Shown: one piece after another, positions 14,754 to 33,911 of the stretch
Layout of the letters: each line of letters begins with the position of its first letter
Numbering within the stretch: position 1 is the first letter of the stretch
NCBI GenBank assembly: GCA_019429385.1
Contig: JAHYIS010000008.1
Location: 4,318 to 68,317 of the forward strand
DNA length: 64,000 nt
Source of the DNA: ANME-2 cluster archaeon
Lineage (GTDB): Archaea > Halobacteriota > Methanosarcinia > Methanosarcinales > Methanocomedenaceae
Direction: 5' to 3'
The notes under the pieces: model-generated
Seen by the model: the letters and a program-made list of their open reading frames with translations, nothing else
The model's database searches: none
Told to the model about the DNA's origin: nothing
Position numbers and translations under genes: made by a program

Positions 14754-16250
14754 ATGACTGTATATGAAAAGATGATACGTGAAGCCATAGCTGCACAAAA
14801 AGCCGATGTGGCAGTGGTAAAGGAAAAGCGAGGTACGAAATTCAAATTAAGTGATGTCAAGCCGTATGTTGACGTTGCCAATAAAATGAAACCTGAAGGA
14901 ACCCAGAGCAAAGCTGTATTCGACCTCCATAAGGATTCGATCAACGCACACTTTGAGATACTGAGCAGCCTCACAGACACGGTAAGGCCAGAGGATGACC
15001 CGTTCGTGGAGCATTACCAGACCGGACCCATTCTTGAGATACTGTATGATGAGAAACCGGATTTCCGCAAGTCCATGGATACATTCATCAATGGATTGGA
15101 CAAGGCGAAAGCCCTGATATCCAAGGAAGTGATCCGGAGATATGGCGGATTTTACGGACCCACCTGTGTAGTGGATTTCGCTCTTGTCCCCGGCAGTACC
15201 ACAAACCTGGTCAACAGGATCCTCCAGAAACTGGATATAAAGGATGACCATAAACGCACTATCCTGGCATCAAAATCCTGGGGTATGAATACATCGTACG
15301 GTATCGGAGATGTGTTCGCCCATGCCCTTGAAGACGGTAAGACCGCTGCAGAGGCAGTGGATGAAGAGGTCAAGATGTTGAAATTCATCTATGATCAGCC
15401 TATAGAAGCACAGACGAAACTCATGGAGAATGCAGGACATACTTCTTTTGATGTAAGGAAATACCAGGACCAGTATAAGGAAAGGATGAAGAACACGGTA
15501 AAAGCAGCCATCGATGATGAAGTGCTTGATGCGAACATTGTGACCGTTCCTGCCTATTGTGTAGGTGACATAGCACATCATATCTCCCAATCCACCTTCA
15601 ACATGTGCAAGGATGACGTGATAATGGCGGTCATCGAAGCCGAGACAGCCGTGCTGGAGAGTACATTGAACAAGGCGATACGCCAGGGTATAGAAAGTGA
15701 GTATAAGATATTGAGCCTGGCAACAGCAGCAACAGCAGCGGGAGCCGAGTACATACTTGAAAAGGACGGGTTCACCGCACCTATGGTCGTGGACCTGCTC
15801 ACGAAGAGGTTCCATAATTACGTCCAGCTATATCCCACCCGGGGTGCCGCAGCAGAACTGCATAACCATGATTTCATGGATATGATCTGGCGGGGCTGGA
15901 TGATACTTGAGAAAGCCCAGAGAAGCCGTAATGGCAAGAAGGAATCGCTTAAACCCAAGTCCGGTACCTATACCATCGATCTTGAACCTATTGACAAGAA
16001 CGAGGTCATCATGAACCCGCAAAGATACGCATATCCAGGATGTGCCATTACTGTCCGGTTCTCAGCACTGATGAGGTTGGCCGATTACCCGTGCCTGCTC
16101 ACGAGTGAGCCGGTAACCGCGACCCTGATGACCAACATCATCGCGCTGCATAAGGATAAACCCGGGGCGCCGGCCAGGGTATGCAAGCATTGCGCCTCAA
16201 CATCCATTGATGTCAGGCACCAGTACTGCCAGTGGGCTGAAGCTATATGA
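14754..16250 (+). CDS. Conserved archaeal protein of unknown function (resembles the family I remember as DUF2193)
   Basis: 498-aa soluble ORF with good coding texture and a Cys-rich C-terminus (RVCKHCASTSIDVRHQYCQW). The family name is from memory only. Confidence 0.6.
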   Translation: MTVYEKMIREAIAAQKADVAVVKEKRGTKFKLSDVKPYVDVANKMKPEGTQSKAVFDLHKDSINAHFEILSSLTDTVRPEDDPFVEHYQTGPILEILYDEKPDFRKSMDTFINGLDKAKALISKEVIRRYGGFYGPTCVVDFALVPGSTTNLVNRILQKLDIKDDHKRTILASKSWGMNTSYGIGDVFAHALEDGKTAAEAVDEEVKMLKFIYDQPIEAQTKLMENAGHTSFDVRKYQDQYKERMKNTVKAAIDDEVLDANIVTVPAYCVGDIAHHISQSTFNMCKDDVIMAVIEAETAVLESTLNKAIRQGIESEYKILSLATAATAAGAEYILEKDGFTAPMVVDLLTKRFHNYVQLYPTRGAAAELHNHDFMDMIWRGWMILEKAQRSRNGKKESLKPKSGTYTIDLEPIDKNEVIMNPQRYAYPGCAITVRFSALMRLADYPCLLTSEPVTATLMTNIIALHKDKPGAPARVCKHCASTSIDVRHQYCQWAEAI

Positions 16251-20230: not shown

Positions 20231-22474
20231 ATGGATAAGCGAATAGACTCATTGAAAAATGATACTACATTCATGTTAAGCATTATATCCATTATAGCAA
20301 TATTCATACGAATAATACCTTTTTCAAAAATCTTTATCAATGGTACTGTTGCCATAATTGGATGGGACCCCTATTACCATATGAGAAGGATTTTTTTTAC
20401 TGCTAATCATTTTCCTGATACTATCACGTTCGATTCATATCTCAATTATCCGTATGGGCTGGAGATCGGGTGGCCTCCCCTGTTCGACCAGGTCATTGCA
20501 TTCATCGCACTACTGAACGGCCATGGCTCTCCGGACCCGTTCATCGTCCAGACGACAGCGGCAATTTTCCCTGTCATTTTAGGGATTATCGTATTCATAC
20601 CACTCTATTTTGCCGTATCAATGATCTTTGACCGCAACGTTGCATTAGCAAGCGCGTTTATCCTTGCAATTCTCCCGACAAACATTAATTATTCAATGCT
20701 GGGGTCAACAGACCACCATATTGCAGAAGTATTTTTATTAATTACATCATACGCATTTGTTATCGCTGCTCTTAAAAGTCCTCGTCATAAACGTCTTTCA
20801 TTATCGCGTATTCCGAAAATCGGTCAAGGCAAATCCCTTTCACTCCAATTTATTTATGCGATATGTGCCGGCTTCTTCCTGGCAGTAGCCTTATTTACCT
20901 GGATAGGTGCTCCGATATTCATTGGCATTATTTCACTTTATGTGGCATTACAATACACAGTTGACTTGAAAAAAAACAGGCCTTTGCCAGGTCTTAATAA
21001 CATTTTCATCCCGGCTTTATGTGTTACCCTTGTGTTAACAATCTTTGGAGTAATAAGGTCTGTTCGACCGGGATTGGAGATGAGTCCGATACACATCTCC
21101 TGGTTCCAGGTCTTATTCGTTCTGCTCATTATCCTGTCAGTATTTGCATTATCTTTCCTCGCAGGATTTGTTTCATCAAAAGGATATGGTTGGTGGAGTT
21201 TCCCGTTCATTGTAGCAATTTCAATGGTTATCATCTTTTTTGCACTTCACCTTTTCTCGCAATCAACATTTGGTTCACTGAAATATGGAATTAGTTATTT
21301 ACTTGGGTATGGAGACGTATTATCAACAATTGCCGAAGCCCAGCCTTTAATTCAGGGACCGCAACAAACACTCAATACATTATTCGCTTTCTTTGGTTCA
21401 AGTATATTCTTTGCCATTCCGGCTTTACTCCTGTTCGTACAGAAAATGTTCAAGGAAGAGCATCCACCTGAATTGCTTTTCTTTGCATCCTGGACTCTTG
21501 TTATCTTGATCCTTTCATTGTCACAGATACGTTTCGTCAACCAACTTTCTATTATTGTTGTGATATTGGCAGGATATTTCATTATCTTCAGTATCAACGT
21601 GATCAATTCATTCAAATATTCAAATGTATTGAAACTCACCGGCATTGCTATACTGCTCTCGGTTGCCATCATACCTACTGTGTATTCAGGGTATCAAATA
21701 GTGGCAAATCCGCAACTTCCTCCGCAGGATTGGGTAGATTCTATGGAATGGTTGAAAAAAAATACACCCGAAACTTCATACTATGACAATCCCAATATGA
21801 TGCCAGAATATGGCGTGATGAACTGGTGGTCGTATGGTAATTGGATCCTGTATCTTTCAGAACGTCCTGTAGTGGCAAATAATTTCCAGGCAGGTATGGA
21901 AGATGCAGGGCGCTTTTTCATTGAATCTGATGTATCCAGGGCAAGAGCGATACTGGATGCCAGGAATGTCAGGTATATCATTACGACAGGCGAAATGGTG
22001 TACGGGAAAAACGAAAATATTGCACTGGCTGCAGGTGAAAATCCTGCTGAGTATTCTGTACGCAGCGATATGTTGAAAACTACTACAATGTATAGATTGC
22101 ACATTGGTGATGGTTCAGGACTGGGTTATTATCGTTTATTGTATGAATCTAAAAGTCCACAGATATTCCTTAAAAATGTTAAAATATTTGAGTATGTAAA
22201 AGGTGCGAATATCATCGGGCAGGCTTCACCACATGAAGTGGTGCTGGCATTCACCAATATTACGACGAATCAAAATAGGGTTTTTACCTATTTTAATTCA
22301 GTGGAAGCTAATGAAACTGGGTGGTATACTATTTCGGTGGCATATTCTACGACTGAGTCAGCATTTGTAAGGAATAAAGTAGAACCGTATAAGGTTATTA
22401 ATTCTAAAAATATTCTGATAGACGAAGTATCAGTGAAGGAAGATGATATAATTCATGGCAGAAATGTTGTTTGA
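20231..22474 (+). CDS. aglB: Archaeal oligosaccharyltransferase AglB (STT3 family)
   Basis: 747 aa with about 13 TM segments. The N-terminal loop has WDPYYHMRR and the C-terminal domain has MNWWSYGNWI (WWDYG-type motif). Confidence 0.85.
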   Translation: MDKRIDSLKNDTTFMLSIISIIAIFIRIIPFSKIFINGTVAIIGWDPYYHMRRIFFTANHFPDTITFDSYLNYPYGLEIGWPPLFDQVIAFIALLNGHGSPDPFIVQTTAAIFPVILGIIVFIPLYFAVSMIFDRNVALASAFILAILPTNINYSMLGSTDHHIAEVFLLITSYAFVIAALKSPRHKRLSLSRIPKIGQGKSLSLQFIYAICAGFFLAVALFTWIGAPIFIGIISLYVALQYTVDLKKNRPLPGLNNIFIPALCVTLVLTIFGVIRSVRPGLEMSPIHISWFQVLFVLLIILSVFALSFLAGFVSSKGYGWWSFPFIVAISMVIIFFALHLFSQSTFGSLKYGISYLLGYGDVLSTIAEAQPLIQGPQQTLNTLFAFFGSSIFFAIPALLLFVQKMFKEEHPPELLFFASWTLVILILSLSQIRFVNQLSIIVVILAGYFIIFSINVINSFKYSNVLKLTGIAILLSVAIIPTVYSGYQIVANPQLPPQDWVDSMEWLKKNTPETSYYDNPNMMPEYGVMNWWSYGNWILYLSERPVVANNFQAGMEDAGRFFIESDVSRARAILDARNVRYIITTGEMVYGKNENIALAAGENPAEYSVRSDMLKTTTMYRLHIGDGSGLGYYRLLYESKSPQIFLKNVKIFEYVKGANIIGQASPHEVVLAFTNITTNQNRVFTYFNSVEANETGWYTISVAYSTTESAFVRNKVEPYKVINSKNILIDEVSVKEDDIIHGRNVV

Positions 22475-22560: not shown

Positions 22561-23376
22561 TTATCGATTTTTTTCTTTTTTATTCAATTCAATAAAAGCT
22601 TCTCTGAGTTCATGGTGAATGTTAAACGGAAGTTGGCCGTTGACTTTGTATGAACACCAAATATAATATCCTATGATATAAAGGCCTAAAAGCAGAAATA
22701 AAATACCTAACAATTCCGTGATATCGAATATCGAATTAAGAAATATTGAGGTGATCGGAACTATAATTATCGGAGCGAAACCAATGACCCATGCGTCTTC
22801 AAAGTGAAAGATCTTAAATTGGTTGGTAAGGAAGAACCACCATCCAAAAAAGATAATAGGTATAACATAAGGAACTACAGTAATAAGCCGTGTGACTTCA
22901 ATAAAATAGATAAAAAGGGATAAAGTAATTAACACAAGCAAGATATTTCGTACGACGAAATTATCTGAAATACCGGCATTTGATGGCGAATGGCTTTTCC
23001 CTTGAACGTGTTCCATTTCAGATTCTATATTTTCAACTTTATTTAAGAGCATTTTCAAATCTATAGAAAAATCCTTGACTTCCACCTGCGTCTCAGCTAG
23101 AACATTGACCAGTGGGCCCAAACGTCTATAAATACCATTTTCGAACGATGAATCTAAAAGTTCATCCAAATAAAGAACCTTTCGGTAAATTTTAACTGCA
23201 TAAATGAGAGTGAAACCTCCGATAAATAAAAACAGTGTTCCAACTATCACATCAAGGATAATATTGGAGATAAAGCCTGAAATAACAGAAAAAAATGACC
23301 ATATTATTAAAAAAACTGCCGCTATTATCGTACTGTAGAGGCCGATTTTTTCTAAAGTCGTTAAATGGTTGGCCAT
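22561..23376 (-). CDS. Polytopic membrane protein of unknown function, translationally overlapped with the pentahaem cytochrome gene
   Basis: 271 aa. It has N- and C-terminal TM bundles separated by a soluble charged segment. Its ATG lies 16 nt inside the 3' end of the upstream cytochrome ORF. Confidence 0.5.
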   Translation of the reverse strand: MANHLTTLEKIGLYSTIIAAVFLIIWSFFSVISGFISNIILDVIVGTLFLFIGGFTLIYAVKIYRKVLYLDELLDSSFENGIYRRLGPLVNVLAETQVEVKDFSIDLKMLLNKVENIESEMEHVQGKSHSPSNAGISDNFVVRNILLVLITLSLFIYFIEVTRLITVVPYVIPIIFFGWWFFLTNQFKIFHFEDAWVIGFAPIIIVPITSIFLNSIFDITELLGILFLLLGLYIIGYYIWCSYKVNGQLPFNIHHELREAFIELNKKEKNR

Positions 23377-24047
23377 TTTACCTCGATGAAGGTCTTGAAT
23401 ATTAACGTAATCACATCAGCAATTGTAGGGATACCCCCTGCCTCTTTTATTGGAGCAGGTGAAATCTCAGGTGATGTTTCCAACAGTTTTACAATCTCAC
23501 TGTCAGGTTTATTTGAATAACTCAGCCCGTATTCACCATGACAAAGAACACATAAACTGCTCAGGTTCTCATGCGACCCATGTGGACCATATGGATGGCA
23601 AATACTGCAATCAGTAGTATTCGGCCTTATCAATCGCTCTTTTTCCACATGGCAGACTTCACATTTTTTATTACTATGAAGTATGTGGATATCATTATCC
23701 CCTAATTGGTCAACTATTCCGACATGGCATCGGATACACGGACTATTCCCGTGTATCTGCTGTACTTTCTTGATATCAATTTCCATATCCCATTGATTGT
23801 TTTCCAGATAATGACATTTACAATTGATTCCATAAGCCCTCTCGATCTCTATGAGCGAAAAATGGCATTGAAAACATTTTGCTCCACTATGACGTAGGTC
23901 ACCTGACCACCCGGGTCTTTCATAGGGGAAGGTATATTCAGGGGCGTTTTTTTCATCAGTGACTGCTGATGAAGAAGATACTTCCTGTACCACAAATAGT
24001 GAAATGAATATTATTAGAACAATTAATGTGGAACCCGGTTTCTTCAT
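23361..24047 (-). CDS. Secreted pentahaem c-type cytochrome
   Basis: Sec-type signal (MKKPGSTLIVLIIFISLFVV). Five CxxCH motifs: CFQCH, CIRCH, CEVCH, CSICH, CVLCH. There is also one off-pattern CKCH. Confidence 0.85.
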   Translation of the reverse strand: MKKPGSTLIVLIIFISLFVVQEVSSSSAVTDEKNAPEYTFPYERPGWSGDLRHSGAKCFQCHFSLIEIERAYGINCKCHYLENNQWDMEIDIKKVQQIHGNSPCIRCHVGIVDQLGDNDIHILHSNKKCEVCHVEKERLIRPNTTDCSICHPYGPHGSHENLSSLCVLCHGEYGLSYSNKPDSEIVKLLETSPEISPAPIKEAGGIPTIADVITLIFKTFIEVKWPTI

Positions 24048-24333
24048 GATGCCTCTTACTATAATTGCATAGATTAAATATAATTATATCCATATATACA
24101 TGAATTGATGATATAAATTATTTGAGGACTATTAACCTTTTCATTATACAGGTTTGTGAAATGTATTTTATTGAGTTTCATGCAATACGTACCATATGAG
24201 TCTAATGTTATATGATTCTACCAGATATCCGGAACAAATCCTGGGTTTCAAGTACCTGGTATCGCAAAGGAGTGTTTTTTTCAAAACAACGTGAATCGAT
24301 ATATTTATCAATGTGATTTAATAATTCTAATGT

Positions 24334-24759
24334 GTGAAAACCAGATATATCATAATTGCGGGACTAGCTGTTATAATAATATTGATCTTTGGTGCAAATT
24401 TATTTGACTTTTCAGAAAAAGTGCCGGTAATTAAAGCGAAATTTGAAATTATCGAAGTTGATAATGAAACTATAATTATCGATAGATCGGTCGAACAATC
24501 TAAAACCACCTATTTAAAACGACCCAGATCAGAATTACAGGAATATCCTTTATTAACCTCGCATGCAGCTATAAATGGAGTTTATTATAGCGATTGGGGT
24601 ATTACTCAATATAATGGTCCTGGGGAATATGAAATTCAAATGGGATTTCGGGAAGGATATTATCCTGTATCGAATGATTATGTTATGGTGATCTCTTATC
24701 TCTATGATGAGGAAGGGAATGTAATACTGAAAGATAAAATTGATTATTATTGGGAATAG
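24334..24759 (+). CDS. Hypothetical N-terminally anchored small protein
   Basis: 141 aa, GTG start, one N-terminal TM helix. No family recognised. Confidence 0.4.
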   Translation: MKTRYIIIAGLAVIIILIFGANLFDFSEKVPVIKAKFEIIEVDNETIIIDRSVEQSKTTYLKRPRSELQEYPLLTSHAAINGVYYSDWGITQYNGPGEYEIQMGFREGYYPVSNDYVMVISYLYDEEGNVILKDKIDYYWE

Positions 24760-24984
24760 AACAACAATATTTTTAGAATATTATATATAATTATTTTACA
24801 TTGCAGATTTCGCACTTTTAATAAGTATCAAGCATCTATCAAGTGTAATTTGATTTACTGTTATATACATATCGGAATTTATATAATTATATAGCTTTCA
24901 GAAAAAAACGATACATATATATGCTTTGAAACAAACAATTAGCCATTAATTGGGATTCATCCCAAACGGAATAGGAGAATTATT

Positions 24985-25593
24985 ATGAATAAGATTGGAC
25001 TCGTATTAGCAGCTGTAATAGCTGTTGGAATGTTTGCCCTGCCTGCCACATTGGCATACTTTGATGGGCAGCACGTATTCGTATCTGGTTCTGATGTGGA
25101 TTGTGGTAAATGTCATACTGCAATTGCTGATGAATTCTATTACGCAAATAGAGGTGCCGATGGTGGTGTAGTTGGTCCTCACGCAACCAACATGGTTTGT
25201 ACGGACTGCCATGTCACTGTACTGATGAATGGTAACAGTACAAGTACTGTCTATCAGAACCCTGCTGCCAAGGAGGGTCACGCATCAACAGCTGTTGAAT
25301 GTATGGATTGCCATGACAGCAATCAAACATCTTATGCTAAACAGGCTGGACAATATGGTAACCATGACATCACTGATCCCACCGCAGCTCACTACGATTT
25401 CTATGCTGCCGCTCTTGCAAACGAGGACACAACACTGAGAAATGGTGCCAATGAAGCTTGTATTGCATGTCATACCCATACCGCCGTAACTATTGTTTGG
25501 GTATCAACAGATGGCAATATGACCTATGACCAGGCTACTGGACATTTCTCACAGAACGCCAATCCAGGGAACAAAGTAAACGCAACATATTAG
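24985..25593 (+). CDS. Secreted tetrahaem c-type cytochrome with SipW-cognate-like N-terminus
   Basis: Four CxxCH motifs (CGKCH, CTDCH, CMDCH, CIACH). The N-terminus is MNKIGLVLAAVIAVGMFALPATLAYFDGQHVF. GGAG sits 8-11 nt upstream of the ATG. Confidence 0.9.
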   Translation: MNKIGLVLAAVIAVGMFALPATLAYFDGQHVFVSGSDVDCGKCHTAIADEFYYANRGADGGVVGPHATNMVCTDCHVTVLMNGNSTSTVYQNPAAKEGHASTAVECMDCHDSNQTSYAKQAGQYGNHDITDPTAAHYDFYAAALANEDTTLRNGANEACIACHTHTAVTIVWVSTDGNMTYDQATGHFSQNANPGNKVNATY

Positions 25594-25666
25594 AGTTTTG
25601 AATTGTTACCTAACTCTAACAACAATTGGTTAAGGTTTTTTGAACCTTAACCGATACCTTTTTTTT

Positions 25667-26383
25667 ATGATTATTTATATTATACTTTCCTCGATTTTTC
25701 TGATTATTCTATTCGGCTTTTTTTACAATCAACATCATAATGGTAAACTGTATCTCCTTCCTTTAATTTTCATCCAGGACCGGTACAAAAAGAATTCAAC
25801 AAAAAAACGTATTGAACAGATACGTTCAAATTGTCATACCCCTGATACGACATTTACCTTGATTGGTAATTTTGGGTTCATTGCAATTTGTATAATCCTG
25901 GCATATGTCTTTCTCTCCCATACACTATTGTTCGGTGCAGTAATGACCGGGAGCATGACCGGTACAGTTGATAAAGGTGACCTTATTTTTATGACCTCTG
26001 TAGGTGAGGTAGAAGTAGGAGATATCATAATGTTCAATTCTCCGGATGTACTGTATCCCGTGACTCACAGGGTCTATGACATCACTCCGTTCGGTATAAC
26101 AACGAAAGGAGATGCCAGGAACCTTCCTGACAGTTGGACTATCCAGAATGAAGATGTACTTGCCCAAGCCGTTTTGATATTTGAAAAACCCATTGTCATC
26201 CCTGATGCAGGTAATTATTTCATTGTCGGGGATGAATTCGAAAGAAAATCAACCATTGATACAGAATACGGAGATGAATATGCCATTGCCAAAAAATTCT
26301 TTAGTATGATACGCTCATATGGAGTAGTAATATTTATCATAGTACTGTTATATTCAGTGTTAGATCTATTCAAAGGCGGTTGA
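25667..26383 (+). CDS. Signal peptidase I, archaeal/ER (S26B, SipW/Sec11) type
   Basis: LLFGAVMTGSMTGTVDKGDLIFM (Ser box), GDIIMFNS..YPVTHRVYDI (His box) and TTKGDARNLPD. It has N-terminal TM segments and a C-terminal TM. The track start is TTG 25640 and the first ATG is 25667. Confidence 0.8.
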   Translation: MIIYIILSSIFLIILFGFFYNQHHNGKLYLLPLIFIQDRYKKNSTKKRIEQIRSNCHTPDTTFTLIGNFGFIAICIILAYVFLSHTLLFGAVMTGSMTGTVDKGDLIFMTSVGEVEVGDIIMFNSPDVLYPVTHRVYDITPFGITTKGDARNLPDSWTIQNEDVLAQAVLIFEKPIVIPDAGNYFIVGDEFERKSTIDTEYGDEYAIAKKFFSMIRSYGVVIFIIVLLYSVLDLFKGG

Positions 26384-26384
26384 A

Positions 26385-27272
26385 TTGAAAAAACTGATAT
26401 TACTTCTCATTGCCATAGCATTCATTGCCACCCCCAACACCATTTCTTACTTTACAGGTCAGCACACTTTTGAATCAAAAAGTTGTATGGCCTGTCACAA
26501 CAGCATAGAACTGGATGTCAAACAGGGGACTACTCTTATGGCAACATTTGATTGTATCCAATGTCATTATTATATTTCAATTTCCAATTCATCCGTTCAA
26601 GGGCATTCTACCGTCAATAATGCATGTATTGATTGTCACTTAAATGTCGGGGACCAATTCATTTCAAAAAATGATTCTCATAAGAATTTTTATCAAGCTG
26701 CGATCCTTGATAATTCCATGTTATCCACAAATGAAGCCTGTCTTATGTGTCATAGTGATATCAATAAAAGTTTTATTTTTTCAAGGCCTGAATTCATAGA
26801 ATACGAAGTAATGAATGATAGCGGTACCTGGACGGTCCAGAATTTACTGGAAGGAGCTACAGTGAACAATAATATCAATTTTAACAGCAATAATGGAACA
26901 CACACCATACTAAGTGGAGCTGATGTGGGTTGCACAAAATGCCATACTGATATCACCACTGCGATAGGTACAGGTGGTCATTATCCTGTAAACACCACGT
27001 TCCACTCGGCTTCATCGACCTGTGCCCTTTGCCATGATAACTATGACCAGGTACAACTCGTCCAGCATGTATCAAATTCATCCACATGTATTAGTTGCCA
27101 TTCTACCCATAATGGAAGTATTATCAATTCAATTAACAATTATCCTATGAACGTTAAAGGAAATATTTGTCTTGGATGTCATATGACATCTGCTCCCTAT
27201 TTACCGGCAAACAATACCATAACAAATTTTAAAGTGTATCTTGAACCTGGTTCAGATGTCATTATAACATGA
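26385..27272 (+). CDS. Secreted octahaem c-type cytochrome with SipW-cognate-like N-terminus
   Basis: Eight CxxCH motifs (CMACH, CIQCH, CIDCH, CLMCH, CTKCH, CALCH, CISCH, CLGCH). The N-terminus is MKKLILLLIAIAFIATPNTISYFTGQHTF. The TTG start is 1 nt after the peptidase stop. Confidence 0.9.
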   Translation: MKKLILLLIAIAFIATPNTISYFTGQHTFESKSCMACHNSIELDVKQGTTLMATFDCIQCHYYISISNSSVQGHSTVNNACIDCHLNVGDQFISKNDSHKNFYQAAILDNSMLSTNEACLMCHSDINKSFIFSRPEFIEYEVMNDSGTWTVQNLLEGATVNNNINFNSNNGTHTILSGADVGCTKCHTDITTAIGTGGHYPVNTTFHSASSTCALCHDNYDQVQLVQHVSNSSTCISCHSTHNGSIINSINNYPMNVKGNICLGCHMTSAPYLPANNTITNFKVYLEPGSDVIIT

Positions 27273-27386
27273 TTGATAGTGAATTCAAGGTAATTGAAAG
27301 ACAAGAAAATCCCTCCTACGGTCGGATTACCTTGAGTTTAGAAAGTTATACTGTATTTACAATTAAAAAATAGTAACAATTGATTG

Positions 27387-28655
27387 TTATTTTCTTTTTT
27401 TATTAAGTTGTCTTGATATCATCACCAATGCAAAAATGACGAAAAATCCTGAAATCGATGGAATTGAAAAACCATTATCACTATCAGTTTCATTTATTGC
27501 ATCACCAGGATTAACTGGGGATTCTGCATCCTGAACAACAATTACTTTCTTAAATTCCTTGCCCTGGATTTTTGCCTGGAATATTCCCGGAGTTTCCATC
27601 GATACATTAAAACGAACGACTTCAGATTCTCCATAGGCTAATGTAACATTCCTGGTGGCCTTTACTTCATCATTAAGCAATAAGACCACTGGTCTGGTAC
27701 CATTCTCACCTGTATTGAACACTCCGACAGAAATCGTTACGTTTTCGCCTTTATAATATTTTATCCTATCTGCCTGAAGTTCATTATAAATGAATTCCGT
27801 AGGTTTTACAGGAATTATTTCAACTTCATAACTCACGTTCTTTGAGCCTAATTCCAGGTTATTAATACCCGGTATAGATGAAATAACGGTGAAATATACT
27901 TCATTTATCTTGTTGGGCTGCAAATCGAAACTGACATCGCCCAGTTTTTTTCCATTCAATACCAGTGGAATACTATCCTTAACAATGTTGGGATTTTCAT
28001 TCGCAATTAAGACTTTCACATTCACATCTGATTCAGGTGGTACATGCTCGGGCACAATGATCTCTTTGACAAAATACGGCTTTGCCGAGCTGTCAATGAT
28101 GATCTTGAGTTCTTTTTCAACTACTTCAGCATGACTGCGGGGGATCAACAAACCTTCATCGATCAAAGTGTCTTCATCATAGGTTGAAAAGAATTTTTCC
28201 AGATGATTGACCTCTTTATCACTCATCCTTGGATCGATGGGTGTAATAAACTTTTTCGTAGTATATGTATAGTTCGTTCTATCCATCTGGTATATCTTGA
28301 TAGTATATTCTCCATCTATCCACTCGGGAGGTATCTTCTTTGAAAAAAAAGCTGACGTTTCTTTACCATACGTCCTTGACCTGTCCTTTTGTATCTGGAT
28401 ATGCACAGGATTATCGTTCGGGTCCTTTATTACTAATAGGTAATCATAAGCAACGATACGATTATAATTATAGAGAAGGTTCCTGTGCGAGTATACATTA
28501 ATAGTACTGCCCGGTACAAACACAGTATTATCGCGGAGTGTTTTTCCGTCAGAAAGCGTGAAATATAATGTTTCGGTGTAGTCCGTAGCATCAACTAATG
28601 GTGCTAATAGTATCAGTATGAACAATATTCCAATAATTGCTGATTTTATACTCAT
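27387..28655 (-). CDS. Cell-surface protein with repeated beta-sandwich (CARDB-like) modules and a C-terminal membrane anchor
   Basis: 422 aa. It has a signal peptide and two similar modules (..VNVKVLIANENP.. and ..VTISVGVFNTGENG..). The C-terminus is SIPSISGFFVIFALVMISRQLNKKRK. Confidence 0.55.
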   Translation of the reverse strand: MSIKSAIIGILFILILLAPLVDATDYTETLYFTLSDGKTLRDNTVFVPGSTINVYSHRNLLYNYNRIVAYDYLLVIKDPNDNPVHIQIQKDRSRTYGKETSAFFSKKIPPEWIDGEYTIKIYQMDRTNYTYTTKKFITPIDPRMSDKEVNHLEKFFSTYDEDTLIDEGLLIPRSHAEVVEKELKIIIDSSAKPYFVKEIIVPEHVPPESDVNVKVLIANENPNIVKDSIPLVLNGKKLGDVSFDLQPNKINEVYFTVISSIPGINNLELGSKNVSYEVEIIPVKPTEFIYNELQADRIKYYKGENVTISVGVFNTGENGTRPVVLLLNDEVKATRNVTLAYGESEVVRFNVSMETPGIFQAKIQGKEFKKVIVVQDAESPVNPGDAINETDSDNGFSIPSISGFFVIFALVMISRQLNKKRK

Positions 28656-32336: not shown

Positions 32337-33911
32337 TTACCCTACCGTATCACCGAAATAGAATGCGGTTATTGTCAGGTCCTGGACATTTATTGTTCCA
32401 TCCTGGTTCACATCCCAGCGTGGATACGGTTTTTCTATTGATGCACCATATTTTTGGCCAATTATGGTTACATCCAGAATATTTACGATACGGTCCTCAT
32501 TCACATCCCAGCGGGGATGCACATCATTTATAGTAATGGTGTGCAGATGGGTAACCTGGTTAGTCCCATCACTAACCGTAATATCAATGATATGGATGCC
32601 TGAACTTGAGTAGCCGGTTTCCCAGGTATAGTTTGGATTTGTGCTGCAGGTGACCCCATCGATCTTTATGACATAGGTCAATACATGGCCATCCACATCG
32701 TTTGCGGTAACGTTTATATTGACCGTACTCAACTCATCAAAGACCGATGCATCTGCTGGTTCGAAGACAGTAATGACCGGGGGATGGTTCACTTCATATA
32801 CAGTGATAGTAACGGCTTGCGAGTCGCCAAAGACGCCATCACTTACTTCAAAGGTAACCACATAGGTGCCTGCCTGCCCATCACCAGGAGTCCAGGAGAA
32901 AGCTCCTGTGACAGCGTCAATGCTGGCACCATCTGGCAGATTAGTAGCAGAATATACCAGGCGGTCTCCATCCTCATCAGAAGCGCTGATAGTAAAAGTA
33001 AGCACAACCTCTTCATCAATTGATCTCGCACCGATGGAACCCATCACTGGCGCGTGATTAACTGCATTTACAGAAATCGTCACCACTTCAGAATCGCTAA
33101 GGAAGCCATCAGTAACAGTAAAGGTAACCACATAAGTACCTGCCTGACCATCTGCAGGAGTCCAGGAGAAAGCTCCGGAAGCAGTGTTGAAACTGGCGCC
33201 TGCGGGAATACTGGATGCAGCATATACAAGGCTATCGCCATCCACATCAGACGCGCTGATAGTAAATGCTATGGCATTTTCTTCGTCAATAGATTTTGCG
33301 CCTATTAAACCCAGCACCGGAGCAGTGTCAACAAGAACTGATGCATTCGTGATAGTATATGGTGCAGCAGTTGAATTAAAGTCGCTGATTATCACTTTGG
33401 TGAGGTTTAGGTTAAGATAGCCTGTAGTGCTGCCCGCGGTCATGGTGACCGATGCAAATACACCCGGTAACGACACATTCGTATTGCCAAGGATTGAACC
33501 ATAAACATTCGTTACTGTTCCTGTGGAATTGTTGATAGTGCCGCTGTTGAACAGGGTGTTTGCACCGTCCTGATCTAAGAAATTACCTTCTGTAACAGAG
33601 TTCACACGTGCCAGCGAACTATCATAGAGTAAATTTAATTGAGCACCGTTCATAGGGACTGCCGGGGTTATGGGTATTGTCAGTGTAAAAGTCTGACCAG
33701 GGATTATCTGGCTGGATGAAGGAACAACCGAAATAATACTATCTGATGTTCCGGAAGCTGTACCAGGGGTGCTTATTCCTATAAGGAATAAGCCAAATAC
33801 AATCATAAAGCCAATTATTCGTATTCTGTGCAAATTTCGTTTTGTTTGAACGCTAAGGTGGTTCATAAGCAATACAGTGTATGGCCACGCATATATGGGA
33901 TATGTAATCAA
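32337..33911 (-). CDS. Secreted protein with an N-terminal cohesin-like module, three Ig/cadherin-like repeats and a C-terminal dockerin
   Basis: Cohesin-like segment: VVPSSSQIIPGQTFTLTIPI...AQLNLLYDSSLARVNSVTEGNFL. Repeats carry ..FTISASD(V/E)DGD.LVY...GAFSWTP.DGQAGTYVVTF. Dockerin EF-hand pair: WDVNEDRIVNILDVTIIGQKYG and WDVNQDGTINVQDLTITAFYFG. Confidence 0.8.
   Translation of the reverse strand: MITYPIYAWPYTVLLMNHLSVQTKRNLHRIRIIGFMIVFGLFLIGISTPGTASGTSDSIISVVPSSSQIIPGQTFTLTIPITPAVPMNGAQLNLLYDSSLARVNSVTEGNFLDQDGANTLFNSGTINNSTGTVTNVYGSILGNTNVSLPGVFASVTMTAGSTTGYLNLNLTKVIISDFNSTAAPYTITNASVLVDTAPVLGLIGAKSIDEENAIAFTISASDVDGDSLVYAASSIPAGASFNTASGAFSWTPADGQAGTYVVTFTVTDGFLSDSEVVTISVNAVNHAPVMGSIGARSIDEEVVLTFTISASDEDGDRLVYSATNLPDGASIDAVTGAFSWTPGDGQAGTYVVTFEVSDGVFGDSQAVTITVYEVNHPPVITVFEPADASVFDELSTVNINVTANDVDGHVLTYVIKIDGVTCSTNPNYTWETGYSSSGIHIIDITVSDGTNQVTHLHTITINDVHPRWDVNEDRIVNILDVTIIGQKYGASIEKPYPRWDVNQDGTINVQDLTITAFYFGDTVG
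32784..33323 (-). repeat. Tandem 270-nt (90-aa) coding repeat, two full copies
   Basis: Residues 197-286 (APVLGLIGAKSIDEEN...VNAVNH) and 287-376 (APVMGSIGARSIDEEV...VYEVNH) align without gaps. A more diverged third copy follows. Confidence 0.85.

Follow-up and report, generated by a model that had tools for sequence, protein, structure and literature searches.

Why does a signal peptidase gene lie between two multiheme cytochrome genes in an anaerobic methanotrophic (ANME) archaeon? The question is raised by a 64,000-nt stretch of DNA (referred to here as the window) from the metagenome-assembled genome of an ANME-2 cluster archaeon (GCA_019429385.1; contig JAHYIS010000008.1, positions 4,318 to 68,317). 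Open reading frame (ORF) inspection of window positions 24985 to 27272 identified three co-directional genes on the plus strand in the order cytochrome-peptidase-cytochrome, namely, the tetraheme cytochrome ECN4, the signal peptidase PEP, and the octaheme cytochrome ECN8. The gap between ECN4 and PEP is 46 nt (from the TTG start of PEP) or 73 nt (from its ATG), and that between PEP and ECN8 is 1 nt. An initial annotation of the window had reported these three ORFs with their motifs, CxxCH counts, and gaps, and every one of these sequence statements was borne out by rereading the DNA. Clustering of the neighboring ORFs placed the three genes in a conserved module spanning positions 22561 to 28655, which also contains the genes for a polytopic membrane protein (MEM), a five-heme cytochrome (C56), a small protein (SML), and a secreted protein (BIG), in the order MEM, C56, SML, ECN4, PEP, ECN8, and BIG. 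The module combines two known kinds of component, i.e., a dedicated signal peptidase within a fiber gene cluster and a cytochrome of the type of AvECN, the extracellular cytochrome nanowire of Archaeoglobus veneficus (8E5G; PMC12954529). Our preferred reading, in which we place moderate confidence, is that the module makes AvECN-type extracellular cytochromes, processes them with its own peptidase, and yields a head-to-tail heme wire.

Cytochromes of the AvECN family

The ECN4 gene (24985 to 25593, plus strand) encodes a c-type cytochrome of 202 aa with four CxxCH motifs (CGKCH, CTDCH, CMDCH, and CIACH). Residues 3 to 187 matched PDB 8e5g_A (E = 5e-17), and a profile of 29 ECN homologs matched AvECN (8E5G) over its full length (residues 1 to 256; E = 2.1e-72). 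AvECN and its MmcX-type homologs are homologous to ECN4 over nearly the whole length (ECN4-AvECN identity, approximately 30 to 35%) and share with it four CxxCH motifs, the same four histidines, and the same N-terminal pattern (LPSTTSLFLGQH in AvECN and LPATLAYFDGQH in ECN4). Judged by its sequence, ECN4 belongs to the AvECN cytochrome nanowire family. The initial annotation had proposed a heme polymer and a check against the archaeal nanowire cytochromes; the check returned 8e5g_A, and the polymer idea gains support because ECN4 is homologous to AvECN, a nanowire subunit proven by cryo-electron microscopy (PMC12954529).

The CxxCH motifs of ECN4 (C40-H44, C72-H76, C106-H110, and C159-H163) were invariant or nearly so in the 29 sequences, and exactly four histidines outside these motifs (H30, H66, H99, and H136) were invariant. 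Because these four match the four bis-His hemes, H30 is most likely a distal heme ligand, and the other three probably serve likewise. The structure of the AvECN nanowire (8E5G) is reportedly that of Baquero et al. (2023). Three of the four hemes in that filament are ligated on the distal side by a histidine of a different subunit (PMC12203936); within the family, filament formation with such ligation is known for AvECN alone. Homologs of AvECN have been reported in ANME-1, ANME-2, Methanoperedenaceae, Syntropharchaeales, and Archaeoglobales (PMC11176372), and Chadwick et al. (2022) described small multiheme cytochromes that have many paralogs and rank with the most strongly transcribed genes of ANME (PMC9012536). 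These small cytochromes are very probably the same group as the ECN family.

A scan with the cytochrome family against one genome per GTDB species, of which the best 80 loci were considered, gave 76 loci, and up to 10 kb of DNA per side of each was examined. The A. veneficus locus was outside these best 80 loci and not among the matches listed in the protein searches. A peptidase homolog occurred in 22 of the 76 ECN loci (phmmer E values, 1e-16 to 1e-116), always on the strand of the cytochrome; with the window, these make 23 peptidase loci.

The ECN8 gene (26385 to 27272, plus strand) encodes 295 aa with eight CxxCH motifs. By BLASTP, ECN4 aligned with ECN8 twice, residues 1 to 164 pairing with ECN8 residues 1 to 188 (E = 2e-12) and residues 28 to 124 pairing with ECN8 residues 171 to 253 (E = 1e-4), with GQHVFVSGSDVDCGKCH opposite GTHTILSGADVGCTKCH. 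These two alignments identify ECN8 as two AvECN-type modules fused in tandem, the second of which begins at G-T-H173; the protein itself matched 8E5G weakly (E = 3.4e-4). An internal second module start was found in nearly all large ECNs (e.g., GQHSF at residues 32 and 201 of a protein from the Methanoperedens locus L025). Large ECNs (at least seven hemes) were present at 13 of the 23 peptidase loci versus 3 of the 54 other loci (Fisher's exact test, P = 2e-6, for loci that are phylogenetically related). Compared with AvECN, then, the window has a shorter ECN4 that lacks most of the C-terminal extension and a two-module ECN8 that has no solved counterpart.

Identity of the peptidase

PEP (25640 to 26383, plus strand) is 247 aa long from the TTG at 25640, from which its residues are numbered here, or 238 aa from the ATG at 25667, which is where the public annotation (P0044) begins it. 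It contains the motifs TGSMTG, PVTHRV, and TKGDARN, and its catalytic core (25952 to 26113) comprises Ser105 (codon 25952 to 25954; TGSMTGT), His143 (26066 to 26068; THRV), and Asp158 (26111 to 26113; TKGDA). The scores exceeded the cutoffs of both TIGR02228 (64.5 versus 51.85 bits) and Pfam Peptidase_S26 (PF10502; 26.7 versus 22.9 bits), and its Ser and His aligned with their catalytic counterparts in human SEC11A. Ser105, His143, Asp158, and Asp164 were invariant in all 23 PEP homologs and remained so when generic S26B peptidases were added. The assignment of PEP as an S26B-type (Sec11/archaeal-type) signal peptidase I with intact Ser and His thus holds.

Like its homologs, the protein begins with a transmembrane (TM) segment, followed by a basic loop and another TM segment that leads directly into the catalytic domain, and it ends with a third TM segment and a basic tail; three TM segments were found in 19 of the 23 homologs. 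This layout would therefore place the active site outside the cell. In an AlphaFold2 (AF2) model of PEP (pLDDT, 79; core, >90), the top Foldseek matches were SEC11A/C (7p2p_A and 7p2q_A; E = 7.7e-4; target TM-scores, 0.50 to 0.53).

A profile search of 5.8 billion proteins recovered approximately 40 representatives of the PEP subfamily scoring at least 118 bits (full-length members, 217 to 283 aa; some are shorter fragments). Thousands of generic S26B proteins scored no higher than 109 bits, below a score gap, and matched the catalytic core alone. By these sequence criteria, PEP belongs to a distinct three-TM subfamily of S26B. The initial annotation had called it "SipW/Sec11-type." The SipW half of that label did not survive, since orthology to SipW was rejected by NF046067 (31.3 bits versus a cutoff of 190); the S26B assignment stood, although "Sec11-type" carries no information alone because it is true of every archaeal signal peptidase.

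Could PEP be a housekeeping signal peptidase that owes its place between the cytochrome genes to chance? No archaeon can do without a Sec11-type signal peptidase, and PEP does match the general archaeal model TIGR02228. However, the same-strand adjacency recurs at 22 other loci from several orders, PEP has the extra TM segments and the score gap of its subfamily, the named members of that subfamily come only from cytochrome-rich archaea (ANME-2, ANME-1 [Methanospirareceae], Methanoperedens, and Syntropharchaeia), and the peptidase is reported to be absent from cytochrome-less ANME-1 (PMC9012536). A chance neighbor is thus extremely improbable, and the distinct subfamily, with its score gap and conserved synteny, argues for a dedicated paralog.

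A conserved signal peptide and its predicted cleavage site

The N terminus of ECN4 reads FALPATLAYFDGQHVF and that of ECN8 reads FIATPNTISYFTGQHTF, with the blocks YFDGQHVF and YFTGQHTF, respectively, after the hydrophobic segment. The predicted signal peptides are residues 1 to 24 of ECN4 (predicted cut between ATLA and YFDGQH) and residues 1 to 21 of ECN8 (between NTIS and YFTGQH). The predicted mature N termini, which carry the conserved module-start motif with its invariant His, are Y25-F-D-G-Q-H30-V-F32 in ECN4 (25057 to 25080, plus strand) and Y22-F-T-G-Q-H27-T-F29 in ECN8 (26448 to 26471, plus strand).

This N terminus had been regarded as a property of the cytochrome pair in the window, but the pattern P-x-T-[VIL]-[SA]/[LMY]-F-x-G-Q-H (the slash marks the predicted cut) is common to the whole ECN family and not special to ECN4 and ECN8. 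The signal peptide consensus is G-x-F-A-L-P-x-T-[VIL]-[SA] and the mature protein starts with [LM]-F-x-G-Q-H-x-[WF]-Y; G15, P20, F26, Q29, and H30 (ECN4 numbering) were invariant in the 29 homologs. We tabulated 138 unique N termini from the 76 loci, counting positions from the conserved Phe (position 0), where F (0), Q (+3), and H (+4) were fixed by the search pattern. Upstream of the Phe, the prevailing residues were P at -6 (93%), T/S/A at -4 (91%), V/I/L at -3 (85%), S/A/T at -2 (98%), and L/M at -1 (84%); downstream, they were G at +2 (93%), W/F at +6 (98%), and Y at +7 (84%). Positions -6, -4, and -2 correspond to -5, -3, and -1 relative to the predicted cut. Type I signal peptidases require small residues at -3 and -1 (the -3/-1 rule). 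The positional pattern and this rule therefore predict cuts after A24 in ECN4 and S21 in ECN8. The site that the initial annotation had placed just before YFxGQH accordingly agrees with the rule as a predicted site (small residue at -1, 98%, and at -3, 91%; Pro at -5, 93%), and the YFxGQHxF block is conserved, F-x-G-Q-H being invariant or nearly so in the 29 homologs and the 138 N termini. From the sequence of enzyme and substrates, we infer that PEP is the peptidase that cleaves these signal peptides.

A further suggestion, that the N termini resemble SipW-cognate signals, found no support: TIGR04088 (a 34-position model) gave no match at E ≤ 10 to ECN4, ECN8, or the N terminus of one homolog, and the TasA control scored 42.1 bits against a cutoff of 19. 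A type IV pilin-like (class III) signal was also considered, since some N termini read M-N-G-K-G, and was ruled out, as the leader lacks conservation and the AvECN filament is not pilin-like (PMC12337348).

The signal region of the ECNs showed 54% pairwise identity, a value somewhat inflated by hydrophobic composition, versus 43% for the mature part. Co-located secreted proteins followed the reverse trend (C56, 22% for the signal versus 35% for the mature part; BIG, 23% versus 28%). On this comparison of sequences, the ECN signal peptide is unusually conserved. The GQH block itself appears to be mainly a structural and heme-ligand element of the mature protein, which would explain why it recurs internally in fused ECNs, where no cleavage can occur.

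The ANME-2 clade differs from the others on both sides of the presumed reaction. Its ECNs have Tyr at P1' versus Leu/Met elsewhere (P0002 to P0009), and its peptidases have S-M-T-G-T after the catalytic Ser in 10 of 10 representatives (P0044 to P0053) versus S-M-x-P-T in all others. This joint change may reflect enzyme-substrate matching, a weak lead given that it occurred in a single lineage and amounts to one event.

Synteny of the peptidase with cytochromes

The 22 loci found through the cytochromes belong to ANME-1, ANME-2, Methanoperedens, GoM-Arc1, Syntrophoarchaeum, Archaeoglobus, and unclassified archaea, i.e., five or more orders. With the window counted, 20 of the 23 peptidase loci have an ECN-family ORF no more than 100 nt from PEP, and the two often overlap. 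The cytochrome-peptidase synteny that the initial annotation had proposed to look for in relatives was thus recovered on the same strand in ANME, Methanoperedens, and Archaeoglobus and also in Syntrophoarchaeum.

In the reverse test, which started from six PEP-subfamily proteins on long contigs, c-type cytochrome genes were present within 5 kb in all six cases. ECN genes directly adjoined PEP in three of them (L080, L081, and L083). In L077, PEP is accompanied by C56, BIG, MEM, and a 22-heme protein, with no adjacent ECN. The remaining two, both from Methanoperedens (L079, 7001 to 12557; L082, 7001 to 12575), contain PEP, a 332-aa protein (weak AAA_22 match), a 418-aa MEM-like protein, a 582-aa protein, and a six-heme cytochrome, and no AvECN-family gene adjoins PEP. 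This context may represent a paralogous system.

The most constant partner of PEP is MEM (22561 to 23376, minus strand), which occurred at 19 of the 23 peptidase loci as well as in L077, L079, and L082. Hydropathy indicates about six to eight hydrophobic segments, along with a hydrophilic loop of approximately 85 aa and an invariant WW. The constancy of this pair is what one would expect if PEP and MEM were a general maturation system that serves many or all multiheme cytochromes, with no special tie to AvECN or to polymers, and if the ECN N terminus were conserved for heme ligation or folding. A general role was proposed by Chadwick et al. (PMC9012536), and it accommodates both the three loci in which PEP and MEM stand with non-ECN cytochromes and the internal recurrence of the GQH motif where cleavage does not occur. 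It does not account well for the close spacing of PEP and an ECN gene at 20 of 23 loci, for a signal peptide that is more conserved than the mature part in the ECNs only and not in the co-located C56, or for the ANME-2 clade having changed both the PEP box and the ECN P1' residue. We consider a purely general peptidase rather unlikely and retain dedicated processing of ECNs as the preferred reading.

Relation to earlier work and to known fiber systems

A signal peptidase and an "8x TMH" protein encoded beside ANME multiheme cytochrome genes were described by Chadwick et al. (2022), who proposed that the peptidase cleaves cytochrome signal sequences (PMC9012536). Their pair was restricted to ANME, Syntrophoarchaeum, Argoarchaeum, and the Archaeoglobi capable of extracellular electron transfer (Geoglobus and Ferroglobus) and was absent from a cytochrome-less ANME-1 subclade (PMC9012536). 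PEP-MEM shows the same pairing and the same taxonomic range and, as matched by description, pairing, and range, may well be this pair. The initial annotation had stated that no SipW-coupled route was known for cytochromes, and the novelty of that point is weakened by the 2022 paper (PMC9012536), which was the only report in the literature searched to link a signal peptidase to ANME or Methanoperedens cytochromes. The published pair has CcmF2 and MHC-B, the giant S-layer cytochrome, as neighbors, and the paper predates the nanowire structure (PMC9012536); it drew no connection between the peptidase and the AvECN family, a conserved cleavage motif, or a seven-gene module. Archaeal cytochrome nanowires have been said simply to use a Sec signal (PMC12337348), and no assembly genes or dedicated peptidase for AvECN were described in the literature searched, which did not cover Baquero et al. 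(2023).

Among fiber systems with their own peptidase, the TapA-SipW-TasA operon of Bacillus subtilis is similar in that an operon-encoded S26B peptidase processes the subunits of an extracellular fiber, and the cut sites are loosely alike in having T at -3, a small residue at -1, and F at +2. The TasA and TapA substrates are, however, jelly-roll proteins that assemble by donor-strand exchange, whereas the ECN substrates are heme proteins with no match to TIGR04088. The archaeal bundling pilins that the initial annotation had cited as precedent proved to be a poor one, as the Pyrobaculum calidifontis pilus has no dedicated peptidase (PMC9245690). A better archaeal precedent is TafD, the signal peptidase of the haloarchaeal Tafi pili, together with TafG (PMC12337348). 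Like the ECN module, the Tafi cluster has its own signal peptidase plus conserved accessory membrane and secreted proteins (PMC12337348), but the Tafi subunits are beta-sandwich proteins, exported through Tat or Sec, whose assembly relies on strand donation. For BIG, the library scans gave CARDB alone, and nothing like TafG/DUF5305 or TapA appeared in the module. The ECN module does have a dedicated S26-type peptidase inside a subunit gene cluster that is conserved across taxa (22 of 76 loci plus the window); its subunits are multiheme c-type cytochromes rather than beta-sandwich or jelly-roll donor-strand proteins. The likeness to TasA/SipW and Tafi/TafD is one of mechanism, not of family membership.

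Maturation of the Geobacter OmcZ nanowire requires a neighboring protease, OzpA, which is subtilisin-like and removes a large C-terminal part. OmcZ/OzpA is thus alike in needing a co-encoded protease before a multiheme cytochrome polymerizes, but the part removed is C-terminal, whereas the signal peptidase PEP would remove an N-terminal signal. The SipA/LepA-type proteins of gram-positive pilus islands also have an S26 fold, lie in the pilus cluster, and are needed for polymerization, and Streptococcus pyogenes SipA (4n31) was among the structural matches of the PEP model. SipA lacks the catalytic residues and acts as a chaperone; PEP, in contrast, keeps the Ser, His, and Asp.

Proposed route to a heme wire

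We envisage the following route. ECN4 and ECN8 would be exported through Sec and held at the membrane by their unusually conserved signal peptide. While the precursor is tethered, the Ccm system, encoded elsewhere, would attach the hemes outside the membrane. PEP, with its active site facing outward, would then cut after A24 (ECN4) or S21 (ECN8) and create a new N terminus, [Y/L/M]-F-x-G-Q-H. The freed six-residue arm would carry the invariant His as a distal heme ligand, by analogy with AvECN probably that of a neighboring subunit. Since three of the four AvECN hemes take a histidine from another subunit, release of the arm is proposed to license head-to-tail stacking. ECN8, as a mimic of two stacked subunits, could act as a preformed dimer that primes the polymer or serves as its base, adaptor, or anchor, and the pentaheme C56, MEM, and the anchored CARDB protein BIG could form a membrane-proximal base.

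The strong form of this proposal holds that signal peptide removal is the licensing step itself, that the arm His ligates the heme of the neighbor (a "donor-histidine" counterpart of donor-strand exchange), that ECN8 is the primer or base on a platform of MEM, C56, and BIG, and that the module is the first dedicated machinery for wire biogenesis. We offer this strong form tentatively and judge its chances to be well below even.

Several observations weigh against the wire proposal. ECN4 is 202 aa long versus 262 aa for AvECN and lacks most of the AvECN C-terminal extension, and it may therefore not polymerize; an AF2 model of ECN4 built from 29 sequences was poor (pLDDT, 53). No peptidase was found within up to 10 kb per side at 54 of the 76 ECN loci, including most Archaeoglobaceae loci. 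If PEP serves the ECN arrays that have no peptidase nearby, it must act in trans. The substrate range of PEP may also exceed the ECNs, as indicated by the loci with other cytochromes and no adjacent ECN (L077, L079, and L082). Finally, the loci share phylogenetic kinship, so the counts and P values overstate their independence.

As an observation on the arrays, tandem sets of two to five ECN paralogs (three to six hemes) with near-identical signal peptides occur in many genomes, often far from any peptidase gene (e.g., L008, 7428 to 11650; L011, 6124 to 10012; L020, 8347 to 12502; also L002, L009, L015, L043, and others).

The shortness of ECN4 bears on a further possibility, namely, that PEP processing is dedicated but produces no wire and that it releases ECN4 and ECN8 as soluble or loosely bound electron carriers that shuttle between membrane and S-layer. 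At 174 to 202 aa, ECN4 and its close ANME-2 relatives are without the central inserts and retain little of the C-terminal tail seen in AvECN and most homologs, and the modest identity to AvECN leaves room for a different role. Chadwick et al. read the small, highly transcribed ANME cytochromes as membrane-S-layer intermediates (PMC9012536), and the membrane-anchored partners C56, BIG, and MEM would suit a short relay. Yet the four putative distal histidines are invariant between ECN4 and AvECN, and as three of them come from neighbors in AvECN, a monomer would leave hemes without a distal ligand; the two-module ECN8, which mimics two stacked subunits, also speaks against shuttles. We therefore consider shuttles quite improbable and continue to favor a wire.

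The module makes the export, maturation, and polymerization of archaeal cytochrome nanowires directly testable, in that its compact, conserved gene set offers concrete genetic targets and predicts a mature N terminus of [Y/L/M]-F-x-G-Q-H. ECN-type cytochromes are believed to pass electrons from anaerobic methane and alkane oxidation to partner bacteria or minerals, and the combination of PEP, MEM, and a large fused ECN could serve as a genomic marker for organisms that build such wires.

Other genes of the module and the window

All seven module genes are co-directional in three Methanoperedens loci (L025, L040, and L053). MEM follows the large ECN at most other loci, which suggests that the module of the window has been rearranged into three transcription units. 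Across the loci, the small ECN has 3 to 5 hemes (ECN4 at 24985 to 25593, plus strand, in the window), the large ECN has 6 to 11 hemes (ECN8 at 26385 to 27272, plus strand), and PEP (25640 to 26383, plus strand) is present at all 23 peptidase loci.

C56 (23361 to 24047, minus strand) is a c-type cytochrome with five CxxCH motifs and an ordinary signal peptide and was found at 14 of the 23 peptidase loci. Its gene overlaps that of MEM by 16 nt (23361 to 23376, minus strand), suggesting cotranslation. SML (24334 to 24759, plus strand), a 141-aa protein (approximately 140 aa in the family) with an N-terminal hydrophobic segment, was found at 11 of the 23 loci, usually beside C56. Neither MEM nor SML matched a Pfam or NCBIfam family. 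BIG (27387 to 28655, minus strand; 16 of the 23 loci) is a secreted, beta-rich protein; its CARDB (Ig-like) domain lies close to the membrane, and its C terminus carries a TM anchor followed by a basic tail. CARDB was matched in 9 of the 16 BIG members (best E = 3.7e-12), and BIG is a candidate surface anchor or adaptor. Very large cytochromes with weak AvECN-module similarity are encoded beside module genes in L077 (9835 to 12900, plus strand; 22 CxxCH motifs) and L038 (4097 to 9562, plus strand; 31 CxxCH motifs).

Directly upstream of the module lies a gene for an AglB/STT3 oligosaccharyltransferase (20231 to 22474, plus strand; Pfam STT3, AglB_core-like, and AglB_L1). An AglB homolog also adjoins the module in L001 (5319 to 7589; ANME-2) and L025 (4840 to 7080; Methanoperedens), and a PMT_2-type glycosyltransferase gene follows PEP on a Methanoperedens contig (L081, 7983 to 9737). 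ECN4 and ECN8 contain four and nine N-x-S/T sequons, respectively. AglB, which is only possibly associated with the module, may provide a dedicated glycosylation step for the cytochromes.

The module (22561 to 28655) is a low-GC island, with a GC content of 0.361 versus 0.467 in the rest of the window (AglB gene, 0.39; thermosome gene, 0.51), which is compatible with lateral acquisition. Elsewhere in the window, positions 32337 to 33911 (minus strand) encode a 524-aa cellulosome-like surface protein with cohesin, dockerin, He_PIG, cadherin-like, and PKD domains, a type already known from ANME genomes. Positions 14754 to 16250 (plus strand) encode a full-length DUF2193 protein (861 bits; an archaeal family of unknown function), located between a pyridoxal phosphate (PLP) enzyme of Cys/Met metabolism and an aquaporin-type MIP channel.

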